Shown here: one piece after another, positions 1 to 10,036 of the stretch
How positions within the stretch are numbered: position 1 is the first letter of the stretch
How the letters are laid out: every line of letters begins with the position of its first letter
NCBI RefSeq assembly: GCF_001724815.1
Contig: NZ_MEDO01000011.1
Coordinates: 2,059-66,058 of the forward strand
Direction: 5' to 3'
DNA length: 64,000 nucleotides
DNA from: Arenimonas sp. SCN 70-307
GTDB taxonomy: Bacteria; Pseudomonadota; Gammaproteobacteria; Xanthomonadales; Xanthomonadaceae
Made by a program: the position numbers and the translations under genes
Notes under the pieces: generated by a model
The model's input: only the letters and a program-made list of their open reading frames with translations
What the model was told of the DNA's origin: nothing
Database searches by the model: none

Positions 1-1
1 T

Positions 2-595
2 GATGCTGAGGCGGCCACTTGGTACAACGTTTTCCGAAACTATGACGCTGCGTTAGGGCGTTACACGACAAGCGATCCCATTGGCCTAGGTGGCGGGATA
101 AATACGTTCGCCTATGTGCTCGGGAACCCAATTAGTCTTGTCGACCCCCTCGGTCTTGCGCCAGGCGATTGCTTCAGGTCGCTACGAGATGCTGGTCGCG
201 ATGCTATTCAATACTACAACTGGCGATCTCGCAGGGATGGCGTTGAGTATGGAGGGCGCATCCACAAGCTTGATAACGGACTCTACACCTACAGCCAAGC
301 AGTTCGTGGCACTCCGACTAGCGTAATACTACCGGCGATTTCCCGTGCAGTTGTTGGGGCATATCACACTCACCCGCCTGTCGACGGCTACGATGGCGAG
401 AACTTCTCGCCCGCGGACATAGACAGCTACCTGGGTACCGCATTGGACGTAGTGCGACAATATGGCACGCTGGAATACAGCTCATTCCTTGGAACGCCGA
501 ATGGCGTGATCCGAATGCTTGACTCCACTTCGGAGGATCCGCTCAAGCCCGTAAACCTGGTTGATGAAACGGCTGAGGGCTGCTCATGTCCATGA
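2..595 (+). CDS. Rhs/YD-repeat family protein, 3' end only (enters from left edge): end of Rhs core plus variable C-terminal toxin domain (DUF4329-like)
   Basis: Frame 2 is open from the window edge. It reads ...[46 protein letters not shown], the canonical Rhs core terminus ending in DPxGL. A ~140-aa tail follows with [29 protein letters not shown], which I recall as the DUF4329 pattern often fused to Rhs. Confidence 0.8.
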
Positions 596-1047
596 ATCGT
601 TCTCTACCCTTCCTCGCGATATCCGCCGTGCTCGGCGGACCTCTTTTAGTTGAGGCCGCATCATCGACCGGCGAGACTCCGGCGCAAACGACAGCAGAGA
701 CGGTCAATGTGGACCGAGGCGAGCTCATTTCTGAGCGAATAAGGATGCTCGAAGGCCTACTCGCGCAATCGGAGGATGAGCGCCGCGCTGAGCTCGTCTA
801 TCTGGCGACCGCCAGGTTCCTGCAGATTCTAAGCGATATGGGATCCGAAGATGCGGGCACAGGCGCGTTGACGAAGAGTCATCCGGAGATCCTGGACCCC
901 AGGAGTTATCGAATTCGGCTAAGGGACCGGGAGGATGTTCTTTTGGTGCATTTCCTGCCGAAGCTTGAGCGCATCAGAGGCGGCGGTTGGGAAATTGGCG
1001 TTGAGAAGTCAACCGGCGAAATTTTGATCGTGACTCCCTTGATGTAG
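586..1047 (+). CDS. putative cognate immunity protein of the Rhs C-terminal toxin (exported, signal peptide)
   Basis: The ATG overlaps the toxin stop by 10 nt (ATGTCCATGA). The N-terminus [27 protein letters not shown] looks like a Sec signal peptide. It holds the usual position of an Rhs immunity gene. I recognise no family. Confidence 0.55.
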
Positions 1048-1148
1048 TTCTTCGGTAAATCGACTGGAGTTCCCAGCTTTTGATGGGCCGTCTTAGCGCC
1101 CGTCTAGAAGCTTGGGGAAGCTCTCATGGCCGGTAAAGCTCAGAGCAA

Positions 1149-1201
1149 GACTAGAACTGGTGGACGCCCTGGCGTTTGCGGCTTGGTAGCGAGGGTTCCA
1201 G
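1149..1201 (+). repeat. possible degenerate attC remnant
   Basis: gaCTAgAACtggtgGACGCCctggcgtttGCGGCTTggtagcgaggGTTCCAG keeps the GACGCC..GCGGCTT..GTT blocks of the attC consensus. The R'' half is badly eroded. Confidence 0.3.
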
Positions 1202-1373
1202 TAGTGCTCAGAGTCAACCGGAATCAGTGGTCAACTCCACCGGAATACGCACCAGCTGGGACATACAATCCACTTCGGCCACGGCCGGCCCCGTTTTGTT
1301 GCCTCGAGAACAACAATTCTGCCGGGTCGGCCGTGTGCCTCTCTCCCCTCAGTTGGGAGAAGAACCGTCCGCG

Positions 1374-1718
1374 GTGGATGCTCTAAGGCAGATCAAAGAA
1401 TGGTTGGCTCGACGATCGGCCCTGCAATGGGAGCCGATTGCTTCGGACGATGCAGGCTTCAACTCAGGTGCGCGGCGAGTGGAGTGGTCCCAGATCAACT
1501 CCGTTGCGGTGTTCAAGCGGGACATGGTCACGGTTGACGATGTTTGGTTCCAGCTCGAGACAGAGCAGGGAACGATCATGATCTGCGAAGAGCAGCCAGG
1601 TTTCGACCAATGGGAGTCGCTCCTTTGCACCGCACTTCCTGCCCTCGCGACCTGGCGATCCTCAGTCATCGATCCCCCATTTGCAGAGAGCTTCAGCATC
1701 CTCTACCGTCGCACCTAA
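1374..1718 (+). CDS. hypothetical cassette protein (start uncertain: GTG 1374 or TTG 1353)
   Basis: The stop TAA lies inside the R'' box (CC-TAA-C) of the next attC. The ATG at 1176 sits inside the attC remnant and would give an implausible Ser-rich N-terminus. GGGAGA lies upstream of GTG 1374. Confidence 0.5.
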   Translation: MDALRQIKEWLARRSALQWEPIASDDAGFNSGARRVEWSQINSVAVFKRDMVTVDDVWFQLETEQGTIMICEEQPGFDQWESLLCTALPALATWRSSVIDPPFAESFSILYRRT

Positions 1719-1768
1719 CTAATAATTCAAGCAGACGCCTTCGGCGCGGCTTAACTCAGGCGTCAGGT
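1713..1768 (+). repeat. integron attC site
   Basis: ACCTAAC taataattcaagcagacgccttcggcgcggcttaactcaggc GTCAGGT, with a central GCC-TTC-GGC hairpin. Confidence 0.85.
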
Positions 1769-1773
1769 TTCGG

Positions 1774-2133
1774 ATGAAGATTATCGCAAGCGCGCTTCTT
1801 GGCCTTGTTGGCTGCGTCTCGGCTTCGGATCCGCCGATCCCCCTTCCGTCGGGCGAGTACGCGTTCACCCATAGATTCGCCGAGCACCCGACGATCCCGA
1901 GCATTCGACTTACCGTCCGCGTCAATGGGCCGCACGTTGTCGTACTAAACCCCACTGCTTCAGATCCATTTCCCGCAGGCGTCCTGGACGAGGGGACGCT
2001 CATGTGGCACGCCGAGTCAGAACAATGGATCATCGGTCGCAAGGAGGAGGACCGGTCGCTTCGTGACGTCGGTGGATGCAGCGGTGGCCCCAGAGTCATC
2101 GATCTCCGGAACCGGGTCTACTGGACGTGCTAG
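1774..2133 (+). CDS. cassette-encoded lipoprotein, unknown function
   Basis: MKIIASALLGLVGC has a lipobox (L-V-G-C). It is bounded by attC sites on both sides. Confidence 0.6.
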   Translation: MKIIASALLGLVGCVSASDPPIPLPSGEYAFTHRFAEHPTIPSIRLTVRVNGPHVVVLNPTASDPFPAGVLDEGTLMWHAESEQWIIGRKEEDRSLRDVGGCSGGPRVIDLRNRVYWTC

Positions 2134-2143
2134 TCCGGCCGAG

Positions 2144-2203
2144 GCCCAACTCATCATTCATGCCGACGTGCCTTCGGCACGCCGCTTAACTCAGGCGTTA
2201 GGC
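2144..2203 (+). repeat. integron attC site
   Basis: GCCCAAC tcatcattcatgccgacgtgccttcggcacgccgcttaactcaggc GTTAGGC, with a central CGTGCC-TTC-GGCACG stem. Confidence 0.9.
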
Positions 2204-2222
2204 CTTTTTTGCGGGAGCCACA

Positions 2223-2516
2223 GTGACAACAAGCATTGATGACCACTTTTACGACCGTGCGGACGAGGTTATTCGCCTGGCGAACAGGCAGCTCGCCGGC
2301 TCGACCCGCGGCAAGGTGAGCGCATCGTGTATGTACGCAACTGCGAGGTTTAATGCGTGGGTGAGTGCGACGGGATTCACCAGCAGCGAAGAGATGGGCG
2401 CTGCCAAGCAGGAGACCATTGAGTACTTCGTTGAGCAGTACCGCTCAATGCTTGACGAGAATCTCACCGATTACATCAGCAACTTTGATGGTTACATGCG
2501 GGCGGACAAGGCCTAA
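2223..2516 (+). CDS. DUF3144-like small protein (typical integron-cassette cargo)
   Basis: GTG start 5 nt after GGGAG. The motifs FYDRADEVIRLAN..GKVSAS.MYATARFNAWVSA..ETIEYFVEQYR..L match my recollection of DUF3144. The stop TAA is inside GCCTAAC. Confidence 0.6.
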   Translation: MTTSIDDHFYDRADEVIRLANRQLAGSTRGKVSASCMYATARFNAWVSATGFTSSEEMGAAKQETIEYFVEQYRSMLDENLTDYISNFDGYMRADKA

Positions 2517-2568
2517 CTAATCATTCAAGCCGACGCGCCCCCGAAGCTGTTTAACTCTGGCGCCATGC
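2511..2568 (+). repeat. integron attC site (R' end degenerate)
   Basis: GCCTAAC taatcattcaagccgacgcgcccccgaagctgtttaactctggc GCCATGC. R'' and the left arm are intact; the R' core is mutated. Confidence 0.6.
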
Positions 2569-2728
2569 CCCGCATTGAGTATCGTCGACGCTCTCTCCCA
2601 ACGACTGGATCAATCGTGGGGCACGCGGCTCCAGCGGATGGCGTTGGACGAATCCGAAGAGCATGGGGTCGTGGAGCTGGTTCGTGTGTGCTAGGTTCCG
2701 CGTCGATAACCAGAGGGCCAGCGGCGCG

Positions 2729-2783
2729 GCCCAACGGTTCATTCAAGCTGACGCCTTGCGCGCGGCTGGACTCAAGGTGCTGG
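2729..2783 (+). repeat. integron attC site (R' end degenerate)
   Basis: GCCCAAC ggttcattcaagctgacgccttgcgcgcggctggactcaag GTGCTGG. Confidence 0.6.
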
Positions 2784-2792
2784 GGCGCGAGA

Positions 2793-3140
2793 ATGGGAAT
2801 GTTTGACGAACCTGGTGACCCATGTCCGCTCACGGAGGAAGTCGCTCTCCTGCGGGCAGAGAAGTGTGTCGAGCCAGTTGCGCGCTTCATCATGTTCCTC
2901 TCGTGCCTGCTTATTGCCCCCGGGATGTTGATGACGGACCACCCCAATTGGATCCTTGCGGCTATAGCAGTCGCGATCTACTACTCGTCATGGGTGGTTA
3001 TATTCAGGCGATGGAGGGCGTGGGCTATCTCGGGTGGCTGCGATCCGGAGGAGCTTCAGCTCCTTGGCGAGGAGTCGGGCATTCTGCCGGCCCGCGGCTC
3101 ATTGCTATGGTATTTGCAGTGGCCGGCTCACGCGCCCTGA
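2793..3140 (+). CDS. cassette-encoded small membrane protein
   Basis: Starts MGMFDEP just after the attC. It has two hydrophobic segments (FIMFLSCLLIAPGML, ILAAIAVAIYYSSWVVIF). The stop TGA is inside the R'' CCCTGAC. The track ORF 2565..3140 spans an attC, so its upstream part is not credible. Confidence 0.55.
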   Translation: MGMFDEPGDPCPLTEEVALLRAEKCVEPVARFIMFLSCLLIAPGMLMTDHPNWILAAIAVAIYYSSWVVIFRRWRAWAISGGCDPEELQLLGEESGILPARGSLLWYLQWPAHAP

Positions 3141-3194
3141 CTGATCATTCAGGCCGAAGTGCCTCCGGCAAGCGGCTTAACTCAGGGGTTGGGC
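3135..3194 (+). repeat. integron attC site
   Basis: CCCTGAC tgatcattcaggccgaagtgcctccggcaagcggcttaactcagg GGTTGGGC. Confidence 0.8.
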
Positions 3195-3230
3195 GTTAAA
3201 GTCAACCCTCACTGTTCTCTGACCCAATCA

Positions 3231-3752
3231 ATGGAACCAGCGCAGCTCGAAGCAACGTTCGACCAGCAGTCGGCCAACTACGACCAGCAGTGGGCAAAGC
3301 TGGCCGCCTTCCGGGAGGGCATTCACCTCTTGATGGGATCCTTGTTTGCCCGCCTACCCGAACGGGCACGAATGCTCTGTGTAGGCGCCGGTACCGGTGC
3401 GGAGATTCAGGCCCTTGCCTCGCGCTTCCCCGCCTGGACGTTCACTGCGGTTGGGCCATCGGCCGGAATGGTCGCTGTCGCACAAAAGCGAGCCAGGGAC
3501 AATGGGTACGCTGACCGGTGCACCTTCCACACCGGCTACCTCGAAACCCTGCCAAGTTCGGCCCCGTTCGATTGCGCGAGCGTGTCGCCTGAACGCGTGC
3601 TTCAGATGCAAGAAGCCTATGCCAAGGATGTTGCAATCATTGCTCCCAAGAAGGTCGCAGCCATGATCGCCGCAGCAGGATTTGGGATGCCTGTTCAGTT
3701 CTACCAGGCAGGTCTCATCCATGCTTGGTACACACATCGCCTACCGGGTTGA
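3231..3752 (+). CDS. class I SAM-dependent methyltransferase-like protein, probably degenerate
   Basis: Motif I MLCVGAGTGAEI is present. The expected acidic post-I residue is absent (AVGPS). The segment after PFDCAS looks ~40-50 aa shorter than usual. Confidence 0.55.
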   Translation: MEPAQLEATFDQQSANYDQQWAKLAAFREGIHLLMGSLFARLPERARMLCVGAGTGAEIQALASRFPAWTFTAVGPSAGMVAVAQKRARDNGYADRCTFHTGYLETLPSSAPFDCASVSPERVLQMQEAYAKDVAIIAPKKVAAMIAAAGFGMPVQFYQAGLIHAWYTHRLPG

Positions 3753-3753
3753 C

Positions 3754-3785
3754 GCCTAACCCTCCCGCTTCGGCTGGTTGCAGGC
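3754..3785 (+). repeat. short attC-like remnant
   Basis: GCCTAACcctcccgcttcggctgGTTGCAGGC has R''/R'-like ends but is too short for a functional attC. Confidence 0.3.
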
Positions 3786-3907
3786 ACATTGATGCTTGTC
3801 GTAATTTTCCATGGGCCCCGTTGGCTCGAACGCTTCCTGGGACCGCTTCGCATTGCGACTGTAAGGAGCGTGATGGTTCGCCACCTGGCCAACGCAAGCA
3901 CCGCCAG

Positions 3908-3964
3908 GCCCAATTGATCATTCAAGCCGACGCCTTCGGCCCGGCTCAACCAAGGCATTAGGGC
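3908..3964 (+). repeat. integron attC site
   Basis: GCCCAAT tgatcattcaagccgacgccttcggcccggctcaaccaaggc ATTAGGGC. Confidence 0.75.
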
Positions 3965-3967
3965 GCT

Positions 3968-4408
3968 ATGAAAGAATCCAAGAAGTTCTTCACCCCTCTT
4001 CTCCTGCTGCTGCTGGCGTGTGCTGCGCACGCAGAGAGCCCGCAGGAGACGTACCAGCGGGTCAATGCCGTGGCCATCCAGGCGTTTCCAAAGGGTACGC
4101 AGGGCTATGAGCTGTTCTGGGTCGCAAGCGAGGCCTCGAGTGAGTCCGTCAACTCTTTGACAAGACTCATTGGCGCGGCCAAGCGCCAGAAGGCTCGTTG
4201 GGTCGTCGCATCGGATGATGCTGCGGCAATCAAGTCAAGTTTGCTTTCAGCTTTCGAGGCATCGACCGCGAGTAGGCGCATCCGCACCGAAATCGTCGTC
4301 GTCAGCCCGCTTTCCGGAGACCAGGAACTGGTCGACGCTGCCAAGCGGGTTGGCGCTTCGCTGGAGTTCTTTGTTCTCCCGCCGCCGCCGGCGGATTCGG
4401 GACCGTGA
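3968..4408 (+). CDS. cassette-encoded secreted protein, unknown function
   Basis: Signal peptide MKESKKFFTPLLLLLLACAAHA. It starts 4 nt after the attC R' box. Confidence 0.6.
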   Translation: MKESKKFFTPLLLLLLACAAHAESPQETYQRVNAVAIQAFPKGTQGYELFWVASEASSESVNSLTRLIGAAKRQKARWVVASDDAAAIKSSLLSAFEASTASRRIRTEIVVVSPLSGDQELVDAAKRVGASLEFFVLPPPPADSGP

Positions 4409-4421
4409 CATTGCGCATCTG

Positions 4422-4450
4422 CGCCCAGACAATTCGCTCAAGCGTCAGGC
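4422..4450 (+). repeat. truncated attC-like remnant (probable distal end of array)
   Basis: GCCCAGACaattcgctcaagcGTCAGGC keeps both ends of the attC consensus, but the centre is deleted. Confidence 0.35.
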
Positions 4451-4745
4451 GCCTTTAATGCATGCAGCACCCGGTTGGTGTCGGCGACGGTATCGAAGCC
4501 GGCGCATAGTGGAAAGTGCCGACCGAGTCACCGCAAGAGTGAACCTGTCCTCCCAACGTTCTGAGTGGTAACTCGACGGCAAGCACCGTTTCAAGCCGGC
4601 GTCCAATGTGACGCGGTGCGGCTGGTCTACTCAAAAAGCCCTGAGCCGTGTGCGGTACGTGACTTCCTGTTGGGATCTTGTATCGTTCGCTACATGGAGC
4701 ACCCCATCATCGCCATCGTGGCACCGCTGACGTCGTGCTGACGCA

Positions 4746-5009
4746 ATGGGCACCCTGAGCTTTCGCACCGCAAGCAAACCCGGGTTGTTCCTCGGCCTGG
4801 TCATGCTCGTCGCGGGCGGGGCCGTCATCGCATGGCCACCGGAGATCCTGGTCCACCACCCCACGATACGGCCCTCTGCTTTCAGCGAAACCAAGCGGGT
4901 CGAGGCCGTCACGCAAGGCAGGGCACGCTTCTATGGCGGCTGCCTGGTCGCTGCCGGCGTCTTCATTGGGCTGTTCTCGCTTTACGCCCCGCGGCACGAG
5001 CAACCATGA
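4746..5009 (+). CDS. small membrane protein (hypothetical)
   Basis: Two hydrophobic helices. ATGA overlap with the next gene. Confidence 0.4.
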   Translation: MGTLSFRTASKPGLFLGLVMLVAGGAVIAWPPEILVHHPTIRPSAFSETKRVEAVTQGRARFYGGCLVAAGVFIGLFSLYAPRHEQP

Positions 5010-5509
5010 GAATCCTGATCTTTGGTAACTCCGGCTCCGGCAAGTCCACGCTCGCCCGTCGGCTGTGCGAGGCGCATGGCCTGCCGCACCTCGACCTCGA
5101 CGCCATCGTGTGGGAGCCGGGGGAAGTAGCCGTGCAGCGTACGCCCGAGGCCATCGCAGCGTCGCTGTCGCAGTTCATTGCGGCGAACCCGGCCTGGGTC
5201 ATCGAGGGGTGTTACGGCGAGCTGGTGGAGGCCGCGTCCGGCCACTGCACCGAACTCGTGTTTCTCAACCCCGGCCTGGAAACCTGCCTGGCGCACAATC
5301 GCGCCCGCCCCTGGGAGCCGCACAAGTACGCTTCGAAGGAGGCGCAGGACGCGATGCTGGAGAACCTGCAGGCCTGGGTGGCTGGCTACTACGAGCGCGA
5401 CGACCCGTGGTCGTACCGCGCGCATCGTCGTCTTTTCGATGCCTTCCCCGGCCAGAAGCGCGAGCTGACCTCTGCCCTGGGGGCTGCTGACTACAGGGAA
5501 CTGCCATGA
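5006..5509 (+). CDS. P-loop kinase-like ATPase (adenylate kinase / topology-modulation protein family)
   Basis: MRILIFGNSGSGKSTLARRL Walker A at the N-terminus; ~167 aa. Confidence 0.7.
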   Translation: MRILIFGNSGSGKSTLARRLCEAHGLPHLDLDAIVWEPGEVAVQRTPEAIAASLSQFIAANPAWVIEGCYGELVEAASGHCTELVFLNPGLETCLAHNRARPWEPHKYASKEAQDAMLENLQAWVAGYYERDDPWSYRAHRRLFDAFPGQKRELTSALGAADYRELP

Positions 5510-6216
5510 AGCCCTCCGAAGTCATCGCCCTGCTGGAGCGTGAGCGCGACGAGCGCGGCATGCGGAACTGGGAGCGCCTGGGTGAGGGCACTGGCGGAAT
5601 GCGCAGCTTCGGCATCGGGCTTACGCGCCTGCGAAAGCTGGCCGCAGGAATAGGCCGCGACCCGGCGCTGGCACGGGCGCTTTGGGAGTCGGACGTGTAC
5701 GACGCGAGGGTGATCGCGCTGCTGGTCGACGACCCGCGCACGATGACCCCCGAGCAGGCCGAGCGCTAGGTGGATCAGCTTGCCGGCGGGCAGCTGGCGC
5801 ATGTCTTCGCTTCGTGCGATGCGACTCTGGCCAAGACGCCCTTCGCGGTTGAACTGGCCGCGCGGTGGGTGCTTGCCCCCGACCCGGTTCGCCGGGCCTG
5901 CGGTTACGGACTGATCTACGAGGCATCGAAGTTCCCCGCGAAGAAGGCGCCCACGGAAGCGTTCTTCCTGGGCCACATCCAGCGAATCGCCGCGACGATA
6001 GACGACGAGCCGGAACAGGTCCGCCTGGCGATGGCCACGGCGCTGATGGGTATCGGCAAGCGAAGCGCGGTGCTCAACCAGGCGGCGCTGAAAGTGGCCC
6101 GCGCCGTGGGGCCGATCGCGTTCACCTCGGCCAGCGGCCAGTGCGAGCCTTTCGACGTGGCCAAGCACCTGGACAACGAGCGGCTCAGGAAAAAGCTGTC
6201 GGAGAATCGCCAGTGA
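5506..6216 (+). pseudogene. DNA alkylation repair protein (AlkD-like HEAT-repeat family) interrupted by an in-frame TAG
   Basis: ORFs 5506..5769 and 5770..6216 are in the same frame, separated only by TAG at 5767-5769 (..EQAER*VDQLAGG..). TGG (Trp) would restore a continuous ~236-aa protein. Confidence 0.65.
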
Positions 6217-6467
6217 ACGCAACCGAGGATTGCCTCGGGGCACCGGGCTCCTGGCTCGCCTGGAAAGAGGGCGGCACGCTGTTCATCCGTGGCGTGGTGC
6301 GTTATCCCAACAATTTCAGCACGGCCCGTCTCTCGCCGGACCCAAAGTGGACATCGGACACCGGCACGCCGCATTTCGTCCTGGCCAGCCGCGGCCTGCT
6401 TGCCGGCCACCCCGCGCAGCGTGATGATGGGCCCCGGTCGTCCACCATCCATCCAGGGAGAAGGGTC

Positions 6468-6740
6468 ATGCCGCAATACCTGATCGAGCGCGAGATCCCC
6501 GGCGCAGGGAGCATGTCCGGCGAGCAGCTTCGCGATGCCTCGCGCCACTCCAACGACGTGCTGGCCCAGCTTGGCCCGGAGATCCAGTGGGTCCACAGCT
6601 ACGTGGCCGGCGACAAGATCTATTGCGTCTACAACGCACCGAGCGAGGACCTGATCCGCTCGCACGCCGAAAAGTCCGGCTTCCCGGCCAACCGCATCAC
6701 GCCCGTCTCCGCGGTCATCAATCCCGCCACCGCGAAGTAG
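6468..6740 (+). CDS. DUF4242 domain protein
   Basis: MPQYLIEREIPGAG..QWVHSYVAGDKIYCVYNAPSEDLIRSHAEKSGFPANRI matches my recollection of DUF4242. GGAGAAGGG lies upstream. The frame stays open upstream to GTG 6213. Confidence 0.7.
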   Translation: MPQYLIEREIPGAGSMSGEQLRDASRHSNDVLAQLGPEIQWVHSYVAGDKIYCVYNAPSEDLIRSHAEKSGFPANRITPVSAVINPATAK

Positions 6741-6750
6741 GGTCGAGCCC

Positions 6751-7176
6751 ATGCCTCGTGGCCTTCGTGTGGTGTTGGCGACCGTGGCCGGCTTCGTCGC
6801 CGGCAGCGTGGTGAACATGGGCCTGATCATGCTCGGTGGCGTGGTGGTGCCGCCGCCGGCGGGCACCGATACGTCCACCATGGAAGGGCTGCAGGCGGCG
6901 CTGCCGCTGTTCGGTCCGCAGCACTTCCTGTTCCCGTTCCTGGCGCACGCGCTGGGCACGCTGGCCGGCGCGCTGGTGGCGACGTGGCTGGCGCCGGGAC
7001 GCAGCGCCGGGCCGGCCTGGGCAGTGGGCGTGCTGTTCCTGCTGGGCGGCACGGCCAATGCCTTCATCCTGCCGGCGCCAGCCTGGTTCATCGCTGCCGA
7101 CTTGCTGCTGGCCTACCTGCCGATGGCCTGGCTCGCACAGCGGCTGGCGGGACGGGCGCCTACGGCGGCGCCCTGA
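6751..7176 (+). CDS. membrane protein (hypothetical)
   Basis: Four hydrophobic segments; GC3-rich codon usage. Confidence 0.55.
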   Translation: MPRGLRVVLATVAGFVAGSVVNMGLIMLGGVVVPPPAGTDTSTMEGLQAALPLFGPQHFLFPFLAHALGTLAGALVATWLAPGRSAGPAWAVGVLFLLGGTANAFILPAPAWFIAADLLLAYLPMAWLAQRLAGRAPTAAP

Positions 7177-8647
7177 GCACCTGGAAAATCACCCGGCCCT
7201 CGTAGGGCTCGCCCCGCGGCTCAAGCTGGAAGCCCAGCGCCGCCGCGCGTTCGACGAGCTCGGGAAACAGGGCCTGCTTGGTGACCCACAGCGCGTCTTC
7301 GCCCTCGAGCAGTTCGGCCGCGAAGCCCGAGTCGTATTCGGCGCCGAATCGCTCGCGCGGCACCGGCTCCAGCGACACCTTCTCGACGGCCACGCCCATG
7401 TGCAGGTGCAGGCCGTAGCGGGCCATGTCCTCGACGAAGACGACCTCCTCGACGCGGTGGTCCACGCGCGACGAGAGCTCGTCCGCCCAGCGGCCGGCGT
7501 CCTTGTTGGTCGGCCACAAGGCCGTGCCCAGGCGCAGCGCCAGCAGCGCCACCACCGCCAGCACCCACCAGCGCGTGCGCAGCAGCCCGCGTCCTTCGGC
7601 ATGCCACTGCCGCGCCACCAGCACCGCCAGCGGCAGGAACAGCGGCAGCACGTACAGCGGCAGGCGCGAGCGCGCCAGGCAGAACACCAGCAGCGGCAGC
7701 AGCACCCATAGCCACAGCGCGAGCAGCGGCGCATCGGCGCGTCGCGCGGCGGCCTCGCGCCAGCCGCGCAGGCGCGCCAGCCCGCCGCGCAGGGCGCGCC
7801 AGGCCACCGCGGTCCACGGCAGCGTGCCCAGCAGCAGCGTCGGGCCGTACACCACCAGCCAGCCGTACCACTCGGGGTTGCGGTGCAGCTGGTCGCTGGC
7901 GATGCGCGCGACGACTTCGGTTCCGAGGAAATACGACAGCAAACCCTCGTGGCGCAGCACCACCACCAGGTACCAGGGCAGGGCCAGCAGCAGGAACAGC
8001 AGCGCGCCGGTCCACCAGGCGCGGACGGCGCGGCGCTCGGGCGCGGGCGCCAGCCACTGCATCGCCACCACCGACATCAGCGGCAGCAGGGCCGGCGGAC
8101 CCTTGGTCATGAAGGCGATGGCGAAGCCTGCCCACATCAGCAGCAGCCAGCGGCCGGCGTGTTCGCGCGGGCCGAAGCGTGATTCGATCCAGGCCCACAT
8201 CGCCAGTCCCTGGAAGGCGGCCAGCAGGTAGTCGGTGGTGATCAGGTTGGCCGCGCCGAAAGGCAGCAGCATGGTGGCGTAGGCCAGGGCCGCGGTGGTT
8301 TCGGTGCCGGGCTGCAGGCGCCGGGCCACGCGCCAGGCCAGCCACACGCAGGCCAGGTAGGCCAGCGCCGCCGGCAGGCGCGCCGACCACGGGTGCGGGC
8401 CGAAAGCGGCCACGCTGGCGGCGATGGCCCAGTAGGTGACGGGCGGCTTGGTCCAGTGCCCGGTTTCGTGGTGGCGCGAGAGGTCGACGAAGTTGCCCGT
8501 GTCGAGCATCGTCAGCGCCACGTTGGTGTAACGGCCTTCGTCCGGGTCCCAGAGGGCGCGCGCCCCCATCAGCCCGAAGGCCAGCAGCAGCGCCACCACC
8601 GCCACCCGAAAGCCGGGCGAGGACAGCGTGGCGCGCCAGCCGGACAC
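7160..8647 (-). CDS. ArnT-like glycosyltransferase family 39 membrane protein
   Basis: N-terminal LWDPDEGRYTNVALTMLDTGNFV motif; polytopic; GTG start. Confidence 0.75.
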   Translation of the reverse strand: MSGWRATLSSPGFRVAVVALLLAFGLMGARALWDPDEGRYTNVALTMLDTGNFVDLSRHHETGHWTKPPVTYWAIAASVAAFGPHPWSARLPAALAYLACVWLAWRVARRLQPGTETTAALAYATMLLPFGAANLITTDYLLAAFQGLAMWAWIESRFGPREHAGRWLLLMWAGFAIAFMTKGPPALLPLMSVVAMQWLAPAPERRAVRAWWTGALLFLLLALPWYLVVVLRHEGLLSYFLGTEVVARIASDQLHRNPEWYGWLVVYGPTLLLGTLPWTAVAWRALRGGLARLRGWREAAARRADAPLLALWLWVLLPLLVFCLARSRLPLYVLPLFLPLAVLVARQWHAEGRGLLRTRWWVLAVVALLALRLGTALWPTNKDAGRWADELSSRVDHRVEEVVFVEDMARYGLHLHMGVAVEKVSLEPVPRERFGAEYDSGFAAELLEGEDALWVTKQALFPELVERAAALGFQLEPRGEPYEGRVIFQVLRAPP

Positions 8648-9075
8648 TACTTCGAGACCTGGGCGATCCAGTCTTCGAGGTTGTAGTAGTTGGTGACGCG
8701 GGCGATGCGGCCGTCGCGGATGTCGAAGAAAGCGCCGCCCGGCAGCACGTACTTCTGGCCGCGGGCCGGCGGCAGGCCGGTGTCGTCGGCCAGGTATTCG
8801 CCGTGCACCACGTACTCGGCGGCCACGCGGCTGCCGGACTGGTTGGCCATCACCACGATGTCGCGCAGCTGCTCGCGGTAGCAGCGGTCCATGCGGGCCA
8901 GGAAGGCCGTGAAGGCGGCCTTGCCGGTTTCGCGCCCGCCCTGGTTGATGTCGTGGGCGACGTCGCCGGCCAGCAGTTCGAGCATGCCTTCGCGGTCGCC
9001 GCGGTTGAACGCGGAGTAGTAGGCCAGCACCAGTTCGATGGCGCGGTCGGCTTGGCGGTTTCCGTCGATGATCAT
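8647..9075 (-). CDS. SnoaL-like / NTF2-family (ketosteroid isomerase-like) protein
   Basis: ~142 aa; AYYSAFNRGDREGMLELLAGDVAHD pattern typical of SnoaL-like folds. Confidence 0.6.
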   Translation of the reverse strand: MIIDGNRQADRAIELVLAYYSAFNRGDREGMLELLAGDVAHDINQGGRETGKAAFTAFLARMDRCYREQLRDIVVMANQSGSRVAAEYVVHGEYLADDTGLPPARGQKYVLPGGAFFDIRDGRIARVTNYYNLEDWIAQVSK

Positions 9076-9088
9076 TGGGGGTTCCGGG

Positions 9089-10036
9089 TCAGAAGGGCAG
9101 GGCGTCGAGGTCGACGTTGCCGCCCGAGAGGATAAGGCCCACGCGCTTGCCGGCGAAGTGGGCGGGGTTGTTCAGCACCACGGCCAGGGCGATGGCGGCC
9201 GAGGGTTCGACCACCTGTTTCAGTCGGCTCCAGAGCAGGCGCATGGCGGCCACCACCTCTTCGTCGCTGGCCAGCAGGGCCTGCACGCCCAGCTGGCGCA
9301 TCAGGGCCAGGTTGGGCGCGCCGACGGTGGCGCGCAGGCCGTCGCAGACAGTGTCGGGCACGAGGTCGGTGACGTGGCGGCCCTGGCGCAGGGATTCGTA
9401 GGCGTCGGGGGCGCCGGCGGGCTCGGCACCGTAGACGGTGGCGCCGCCGCGGGCCGCCGCCACCAGGGCGCTGCCGCAGGTCAGGCCGCCGCCGCCCAGC
9501 GGGGTGACCAGGGCATCGAGCGGGCCGGTTTCCGACAGCAGCTCGAGCGCGGCCGTGCCCTGGCCGGCGATCACCCGTGGGTCGGCGTAGGGGTGCACCA
9601 GGGTGGCGCCGGTGTCGGCCAGGATGCGGGCCGCGGCGGCCTCGCGCGCGGCCTGGGTGGCGGCGCAGCGGTGCACGGTGGCGCCATAGGCTTCGATGGC
9701 GGCCAGCTTCACGGCGTTGGCGCCGTCGGGCACCACCACGTGGGCGGGGATACCGCGCTCGCGGGCGGCCAGGGCCAATGCGGCGCCATGGTTGCCGGAG
9801 GAATGGGTGACCACGCCGCGGGCGGCGGTTTCATCGTCGAGCGACTGCACGGCGTTGCAGGCGCCGCGGAACTTGAAGGCGCCGATGCGCTGCACGTGCT
9901 CGCACTTGAAGTGCAGCTCGGCGCCGGCCAGCGCGTCGAGCGAACGCGAGCGCAGCACGGGCGTGCGGTTGGCGTGCGGGGCGATACGTGCGGCGGCGGC
10001 CAGCACGTCGTCGAAAGCAGGGAGCAGGGGTGTCAT
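9089..10036 (-). CDS. PLP-dependent threonine/serine dehydratase family enzyme
   Basis: The FKCEHVQRIGAFKFRGACNAV lysine motif and SSGNHGAALA glycine-rich loop are present. Confidence 0.8.
   Translation of the reverse strand: MTPLLPAFDDVLAAAARIAPHANRTPVLRSRSLDALAGAELHFKCEHVQRIGAFKFRGACNAVQSLDDETAARGVVTHSSGNHGAALALAARERGIPAHVVVPDGANAVKLAAIEAYGATVHRCAATQAAREAAAARILADTGATLVHPYADPRVIAGQGTAALELLSETGPLDALVTPLGGGGLTCGSALVAAARGGATVYGAEPAGAPDAYESLRQGRHVTDLVPDTVCDGLRATVGAPNLALMRQLGVQALLASDEEVVAAMRLLWSRLKQVVEPSAAIALAVVLNNPAHFAGKRVGLILSGGNVDLDALPF

Follow-up and report, generated by a model that had tools for sequence, protein, structure and literature searches.

A stretch of 64,000 nt from Arenimonas sp. 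SCN 70-307 (contig NZ_MEDO01000011.1, positions 2,059 to 66,058; analysed at its full length and here called the window) opens inside a gene for an Rhs protein. Proteins of this class are named after "rearrangement hot spots", and their toxin tips are swapped by recombination. In the window, such a tip and a candidate immunity gene stand directly in front of an integron cassette array, which raises the question of how the two came to lie side by side. An initial annotation, made from the letters of the window, offered two answers: either the toxin/immunity module had been captured or shuffled by the integron machinery, or the array had landed in a locus of orphan Rhs modules. We arrive at a different one. 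With a probability of roughly 85%, positions 1–1251 belong to a 9.1-kb transposon from the IS21 family of insertion sequences (IS) and form its cargo end; in Arenimonas-like bacteria, this element carries an entire Rhs toxin/immunity system. The array is the landing site, and its adjacency to the Rhs module is incidental.

Ends, transposition genes and relatives of the element

The window was compared with metagenome assemblies from several assemblers and projects (ENA, JGI, Logan). One contig, L001, covers the same locus (99.85% identity, one 17-nt indel) and reaches 7.9 kb further left. The exact 153-aa protein encoded behind the toxin tip was present on 15 contigs and was used to align copies of the element. 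Contigs L002 to L010 are 100% identical to the window up to position 1251, beyond which their contexts differ completely: four different right-hand contexts were seen (window, L003, L006 and L009), and two contigs end exactly at 1251. The right junction reads ...GTCAACTCCACCGGAATACGCA|N (ending in ACGCA) and is followed by unrelated sequence, whereas the left boundary, obtained from five different left contexts, shares ...GTCAACCAGCGCCCGCA| and then diverges. At 100% identity, the block is present in at least five different genomic contexts.

The identity across L002 to L010 delimits a right, cargo-side arm of the transposon (1048–1251, forward strand), which includes a stretch (1149–1201) that is taken up again below. 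It closes with a terminal inverted repeat (1209–1251, reverse strand), defined by aligning both ends of four element lineages. Read inward, this repeat is TGCGTATTCCGGTGGAGTTGACCACTGATTCCGGTTGACTCTG, with two sub-repeats (ATTCCGG... and ATTCCGGTTGAC) ~22 bp apart and a terminal ...CA-3'. Both ends of the element begin with TGCG and carry two CCGG(TTGAC) sub-repeats at that spacing, an arrangement kept in four lineages with unrelated adjacent cargo. For elements of the IS21 family, ends with a reactive terminal CA and two direct repeats (L1/L2-R1/R2) at a distance of ~23 bp have been described (PMC10122671).

Target-site duplications accompany these ends. In the window strain the element is flanked by the 6-bp sequence CCAGCT, with the right copy at 1252–1257 and the left copy at L001:51-56, just beyond the other element end. 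In sample ERR14064759 the element is inserted inside an ISL3 transposase gene and flanked by AAAAAA; when the flanks are joined, an uninterrupted DDE_Tnp_ISL3 frame results (profile positions 1–63, E 1.1e-16). Sister elements show CCGAAC (L026) and CCTACGG (L025), and duplications of 6–7 bp were thus found at four independent insertions.

In the orientation of the window, the element consists of the left inverted repeat, an outward-facing gene for a 270-aa protein, a gene for a 104-aa helix-turn-helix (HTH) protein, istA, istB, rhs, the immunity gene and the right inverted repeat. It measures 9.1 kb in the window type and 9.1–9.8 kb across the elements examined. The 270-aa gene and the 104-aa gene, which precede istA, are followed by istA (L001:1737-3266) for a 509-aa DDE transposase and, directly downstream, istB (L001:3270-4022) for a 250-aa AAA+ helper. 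IstA matched NF033546 transpos_IS21 (253.3 bits, cut-off 160) together with the Pfam families rve and Mu-transpos_C_2, and IstB matched NF038214 IS21_help_AAA (263.5 bits, cut-off 200). The nearest plasmid-borne IstA, from Comamonas, is 52% identical and has neither a 270-aa neighbour nor accessory genes nor clear long-range inverted repeats. A nested IS21 insertion comprising istAB, with ends TGTCAAC…GTTGACA at L001:~1636/~4104, was also considered and was rejected in view of the synteny in all lineages and the lack of flanking repeats.

The order 270-aa gene, 104-aa gene, istA and istB is identical in all lineages examined. Relative to the window type, the L025, L019 and L023 lineages show identities of 92, 65 and 71% for IstA, 93, 80 and 82% for IstB, 82, 63 and 63% for the 104-aa protein, and 65, 48 and 51% for the 270-aa protein; the four core genes have diverged together. 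Downstream of istB follows a variable cargo region of 4.5–6 kb. In the L025 lineage, whose element of 9,110 bp occurs in three different flanks, the cargo encodes an Rhs protein that is 75% identical up to DPLGLA and then continues into an unrelated, HEAHH-containing tip with an unrelated 135-aa partner. The L019 cargo encodes a ribbon-helix-helix protein and an ABC-type transporter, and the L023 cargo an HNH protein and other small genes. A derivative on L002 has kept both ends and the 270-aa gene, is without istAB and has a different Rhs N-terminus; a full element copy (L013) was present in the same sample.

No match to the 270-aa protein was found in Pfam, NCBIfam, PHROGs, PADLOC or among PDB sequences. 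Its AlphaFold2 model is confident (predicted local distance difference test, pLDDT, 88.5; predicted template modelling score, pTM, 0.87) and almost all helical with two short strands, and it had no fold match in the PDB at E <= 0.001. As modelled, the protein does not have an RNase-H/DDE fold. The family is rare: 5.8 billion proteins contained 18 clusters, a set of 1.84 billion yielded 162 representatives at E <= 1e-3, and 185,579 species genomes had a single locus. A search for further copies of the element gave one locus in the GTDB species genomes and five in JGI metagenome contigs, one of them (L035) degenerate; neither the protein nor the element was found in plasmids. In every relative with readable context, the 270-aa gene adjoins the 104-aa-istA-istB module.

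This tight linkage to the elements, together with the lack of a recognisable function, lends some weight to the view that istAB is an ordinary IS21 insertion sequence nested in a larger island and that something else, with the 270-aa protein as the candidate, moves the island, all the more as the 270-aa gene is the only gene kept in every version and the istAB-less L002 retains both ends. We nevertheless consider this improbable. The position of istAB is constant in four lineages down to 65% IstA identity, istAB co-diverges with the core genes, the outer ends show the hallmark organisation of IS21, and the predicted fold of the 270-aa protein is that of a nearly all-helical protein and not of a DDE enzyme, with no PDB match. 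Neither inverted repeats nor IstA-type sub-repeats were found directly flanking istAB inside the element; because no internal IS boundaries flank it, istAB is read as the transposition module of the element itself.

Individual copies and their surroundings showed further features. In the L019 element the gene-side end occurs twice (9766-9782 and 9890-9906), 124 bp apart, as GTCCTCCAGCGCCCGCT and GTCCTACAGCGCCCGCA; additional CCGGTTGA sub-repeats lie in between. On L007, an IS3-family element (HTH_Tnp_1 transposase) begins at position 1307, corresponding to window position 1160, inside the right arm and 91 bp from the end. Three of the five left flanks of the window type are other insertion sequences (ISL3 twice, and one with GAAAATTGACCAG repeats; L013:6072-6178, L017:1334-1396), which could reflect target preference or survival in dispensable DNA. 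Elements of this family have defence genes and a Tn7-like element among their neighbours, as well as further IS copies. Neighbourhoods with defence or mobile DNA were noted at L023:14040-19394, L026:14208-18783 and L027:3960-9244, the listed neighbours being a CBASS-like cluster (SMODS, HORMA, AAA, SAVED), a Tn7-like tnsA-tniB-tniQ set, and an nSTAND/Mrr protein with a tyrosine integrase. This pattern fits an accumulation in dispensable regions rich in mobile DNA.

The Rhs protein and its candidate immunity partner

The window starts with the last 52 codons of the Rhs core (2–157, forward strand), corresponding to the C-terminal aspartyl-protease plug. Residues 1–52 of the frame 2–595 match TIGR03696 Rhs_assc_core (E 1.3e-15, 57.6 bits, cut-off 32.5), and the translation reads ...SDPIGL-x18-DPLGL before a tip of 146 aa begins, as the initial annotation had recognised. 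Motifs of the type DPxGL-x18-DPxGL are the signature of the aspartyl autoprotease that frees Rhs tips (PMC8636562). It had also been left open there whether a full protein or an orphan tip lies upstream. The leftward extension by L001 gave a full Rhs protein of 1454 aa (start at L001:4158) with a signal peptide, DUF6531, YD repeats and DUF4329; for the full rhs gene at L002:1773-6137, YD/RHS repeats were matched by PF05593 (E 3.7e-61, 14 stretches) and TIGR01643 (E 1.1e-48). PAAR, VgrG and Eag were not matched in the full Rhs, and no genes of a type VI secretion system (T6SS) were seen within the element. The protein is predicted to be of the Sec-signal type, outside a T6SS delivery context. 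The GC content is ~55–57% in the Rhs tip and immunity gene, ~60% in the cassette region and 72% in the remaining window, whose housekeeping proteins cluster at ≥90% identity with proteins from Arenimonas sp.

The variable toxin tip (158–595, forward strand) belongs to the Tox-JAB-2/DUF4329 class, according to profile and motif. PF14220 (DUF4329) matched residues 63–177 of the window frame (E 1.4e-13, 51.2 bits, cut-off 28.6), which bears out the assignment of the initial annotation. The tip has the motif E(YGG)...HTH...S-x-x-D, of which E31, H71-T72-H73, S85 and D88 are invariant in the alignment. DUF4329 is the domain that Zhang et al. 2012 termed Tox-JAB-2; they gave its motif as E, H[ST]H, S, D and predicted a hydrolase, possibly a nuclease (PMC3482391). 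A search of PDB sequences with the tip gave no match. Its AlphaFold2 model, built from a three-sequence alignment, is of moderate confidence (pLDDT 75.5), and its top PDB fold matches were nearly all JAMM/MPN+ proteins, at low TM-scores of 0.36–0.45; the best was an Rpn11 homologue (6fju, E 1.2e-4, probability 1.00), and JAMM1, CSN5, AMSH and RadC were among the others. We regard the tip as a predicted JAMM/MPN-like metal hydrolase. It shares with Tox-JAB-2 the Pfam score above the gathering threshold, the motif and, tentatively, a predicted JAB/JAMM-like fold; the partner differs, being an unclassified protein with a signal peptide here and Imm-NTF2-2 in the case reported for E. coli.

Two related proteins of other make-up were seen besides. 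In P0185 and P0186 (202–229 aa, secreted), a signal peptide is followed by no more than the final ~40 residues of an Rhs core (YDP..RW..RDP.G...G LAPGD) and then by a DUF4329 tip; both are putative minimal toxins without a YD shell.

Behind the tip, the open reading frame (ORF) 586–1047 (forward strand, from the ORF list) encodes the 153-aa protein. As noted initially, it overlaps the rhs stop by 10 nt, and a second ATG makes an ATGA overlap with that stop. Its N-terminus is hydrophobic and resembles a signal peptide, with cleavage read before AS (judged from the sequence). No match was found in Pfam, NCBIfam, PHROGs, PADLOC or the PDB, and it belongs to no known family. The sole homologue, P0168, is 51% identical and likewise starts with a signal-like N-terminus, of differing sequence; its gene follows an 81%-identical DUF4329 tip with the identical 10-nt overlap and is followed by the same transposon end in three different flanks. 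Where the tip is unrelated, as in the L025 lineage compared with the window type, the partner is unrelated too. The coupling of the two genes, the exchange of the partner along with the tip and the faster divergence of the partner relative to the tip fit a role as cognate immunity protein, and we refer to the 153-aa protein as the candidate immunity protein.

The reading of the module as toxin and immunity gene, put forward in the initial annotation, is thus supported by an Rhs tip of the DUF4329 class followed by a translationally coupled and apparently exported partner. Signal peptides predicted on both the Rhs protein and its partner favour action in the periplasm. A remnant on L038 (1959-2612), beside a cytochrome P460 gene, retains the last 48 nt of rhs, an intact P0168 gene and the right end of the transposon, and is a putative case of 'orphan immunity' left by decay of the element.

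The cassette array beside the element

Past the right copy of the target duplication lies target DNA (1258–1709, forward strand), with a 110-nt spacer that contains a GC-rich hairpin and then the first cassette ORF, which ends at 1718; between the transposon and the first recognisable cassette lie ~115 nt. The array proper (1710–3968, forward strand) holds six attC sites, with short ORFs between them, at 1710–1773, 2141–2208, 2508–2573, 2726–2790, 3132–3199 and 3905–3968, recognised by R''/R' and L''/L' pairing. They bear out the cassettes of the initial annotation. From these six we built a covariance model, which was applied to window positions 1–9000 with its filters switched off and an E limit of 10. 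In another metagenome it also recovered an independent attC (L002:325-417; 49.5 bits, E 2.5e-11). All sites are oriented R''->R', and any integrase would therefore lie left of the window. An intI gene was seen neither in the window nor in the 7.9 kb recovered to its left, and all contigs end in an ISL3 copy. In the window strain only 16 bp separate this ISL3 element from the other end of the transposon; it was recognised from Zn_ribbon_ISL3 and HTH_Tnp_ISL3 matches in its transposase.

Two facts speak for the view that the Rhs tip and immunity gene were themselves an integron cassette, or had been captured or shuffled by an integrase through a degraded attC at 1149–1201: the module stands directly beside six attC sites of the same orientation, and the L002 deletion derivative was likewise found in an integron cassette, at a distance of 61 nt from a real attC that precedes it. 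Nevertheless, the attC model found nothing at 1149–1201, at 1252–1366 or elsewhere in 1–1709, and a run over L001:8900-9700 gave no match in L001:8900-9650. The supposed degraded site lies inside the block that ends at 1251 and travels with it into unrelated contexts; it is therefore part of the mobile element and not of the array. The junction reads ...ACGCA|N and not G|TTRRRY, and the bounds of the module are IS21-type inverted repeats with 6–7-bp duplications in place of attC or G|TT. Furthermore, the same block with the same ends occurs at non-integron sites with target duplications, and the mobile unit, 9 kb in length, comprises several genes and encodes a transposase of its own. Integron capture is consequently very unlikely. 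The second idea, an array landed among orphan Rhs modules, is not supported by these findings either; in our reading, a transposon with a whole rhs inserted beside the array.

The one indel between the window and L001 lies close to the array. At window 1366/1367, 17 extra nt (TTAACTTAAGGCGTTAC) are present in L001 (9293-9309), L011 and L012 and missing from the window. They restore CTTAACTTAAGGCGTTACG, which resembles the 3' half of an attC and matches the L'-R' half of the L002 attC (L002:399-417), at a homologous cassette start; on L002 this cassette start directly follows the attC (L002:417-478). The half-site CTTAACTTAAGGCGTTACG was not scored by the attC model.

A third explanation, a passive islet spread by homologous recombination or produced by assembly artefacts, with coincidental ends and duplications, could appeal to the fact that all data are metagenome assemblies whose contigs often break at element ends, and yet it is scarcely tenable against four independent exact duplications of 6–7 bp (chance ~1 in 4,000 or rarer each), the precise restoration of an interrupted ISL3 transposase frame and the recurrence of the same ends in material from different assemblers and projects.

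Two further observations concern the window itself. Between two attC sites, positions 2574–2725 comprise ~150 nt with no plausible ORF and may be an empty or non-coding cassette. At 5509–6216, two adjoining same-strand ORFs (87 and 148 aa, by the L001 gene calls) are separated by one TAG (~5767–5769) and may be one gene broken by a stop codon.

Proposed mechanism, known systems and meaning

If the element works by the mechanism established for IS21/IS5376, an IstA tetramer would bind the sub-repeats, cleave next to the terminal CA and, together with target-bound IstB, insert the whole unit through a staggered cut of 6–7 bp. The Rhs protein would be exported by Sec, and its aspartyl-protease plug would cleave after DPLGL, so that the tip, a predicted JAMM-like hydrolase (Tox-JAB-2), comes free within the shell. 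In the periplasm, the 153-aa protein, itself exported, would neutralise this tip. Carriers would then be immune and non-carriers killed, so that the pair could serve as a module for both addiction and competition, and the transposon probably benefits from it.

Several points weigh against the cargo transposon as we describe it. That IstA and IstB act on these particular ends is something we infer; toxin activity, immunity function and periplasmic location are predictions from sequence, and the nuclease role predicted for Tox-JAB-2 by Zhang et al. fits poorly with an exported immunity protein. No clean target duplication was found for the L019 element, and a search of 10 kb did not reveal where the L023 element ends on its cargo side. 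The istAB-less L002 derivative, at a separate site with intact ends, would need mobilisation in trans. The literature searched, which did not extend to the ISfinder and TnCentral databases, contained no IS21-family cargo transposon and no Rhs system carried in this way.

With IS21/IS5376 the element shares istA followed by istB with profile matches above the cut-offs, 5'-TG…CA-3' ends, two direct sub-repeats ~22–23 bp apart and short target duplications, which fall within the 4–8 bp of the family. It differs in its length (9.1 kb against ~2–2.7 kb for elements with istA and istB alone), in two conserved extra genes upstream of istA and the 4.5–6 kb of variable cargo downstream of istB, and in duplications of 6–7 bp rather than 4–5 bp. 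The arrangement in which one transposition module and one pair of ends enclose passengers, so that these move with the element alone, is shared with transporter IS (tIS) and with unit transposons that carry passenger genes, such as members of the Tn3 family; the transporter-IS concept and Tn3-family elements with effector passengers have been described (PMC7371123, PMC9330008). Here, however, the machinery is of the IS21 type and the passenger is a complete Rhs system, whereas the passengers there are resistance, effector or catabolic genes.

Among Rhs systems, both the PAAR-Rhs proteins of the T6SS and the Sec-dependent WapA type have in common with the present one the YD shell, the DUF6531 plug, the DPxGL-x18-DPxGL core, a tip starting from DPLGL and a downstream immunity gene, and the replacement of tip and immunity gene between sister elements follows the classical pattern. 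In contrast, PAAR, VgrG and Eag are missing here, a Sec signal peptide and an exported immunity candidate are present, and the whole gene is mobile as cargo, unlike a chromosomal rhs locus with orphan tips.

We tentatively propose a broader picture, in which the elements form an undescribed lineage of IS21-derived cargo transposons. The accessory 104-aa HTH and 270-aa proteins may regulate or target transposition, and the Sec-exported Rhs system would be a self-serving passenger, the weapon spreading the transposon and the transposon spreading weapon and immunity, with immunity-only remnants staying behind after decay. For the scanning of genomes, the locus calls for caution, as a toxin module beside an integron array does not by itself imply capture by the integron. 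One of the extra conserved genes, encoding the 270-aa protein, stands without detectable structural relatives. If the IS21-type reading is true, the IS21 family, which is a structural model system and has been regarded as one of plain insertion sequences, extends to cargo transposons with extra conserved genes, and the carriage of a whole Rhs system by a simple DDE transposon would mean a different and much faster way for weapons of interbacterial competition, and the immunity to them, to spread.

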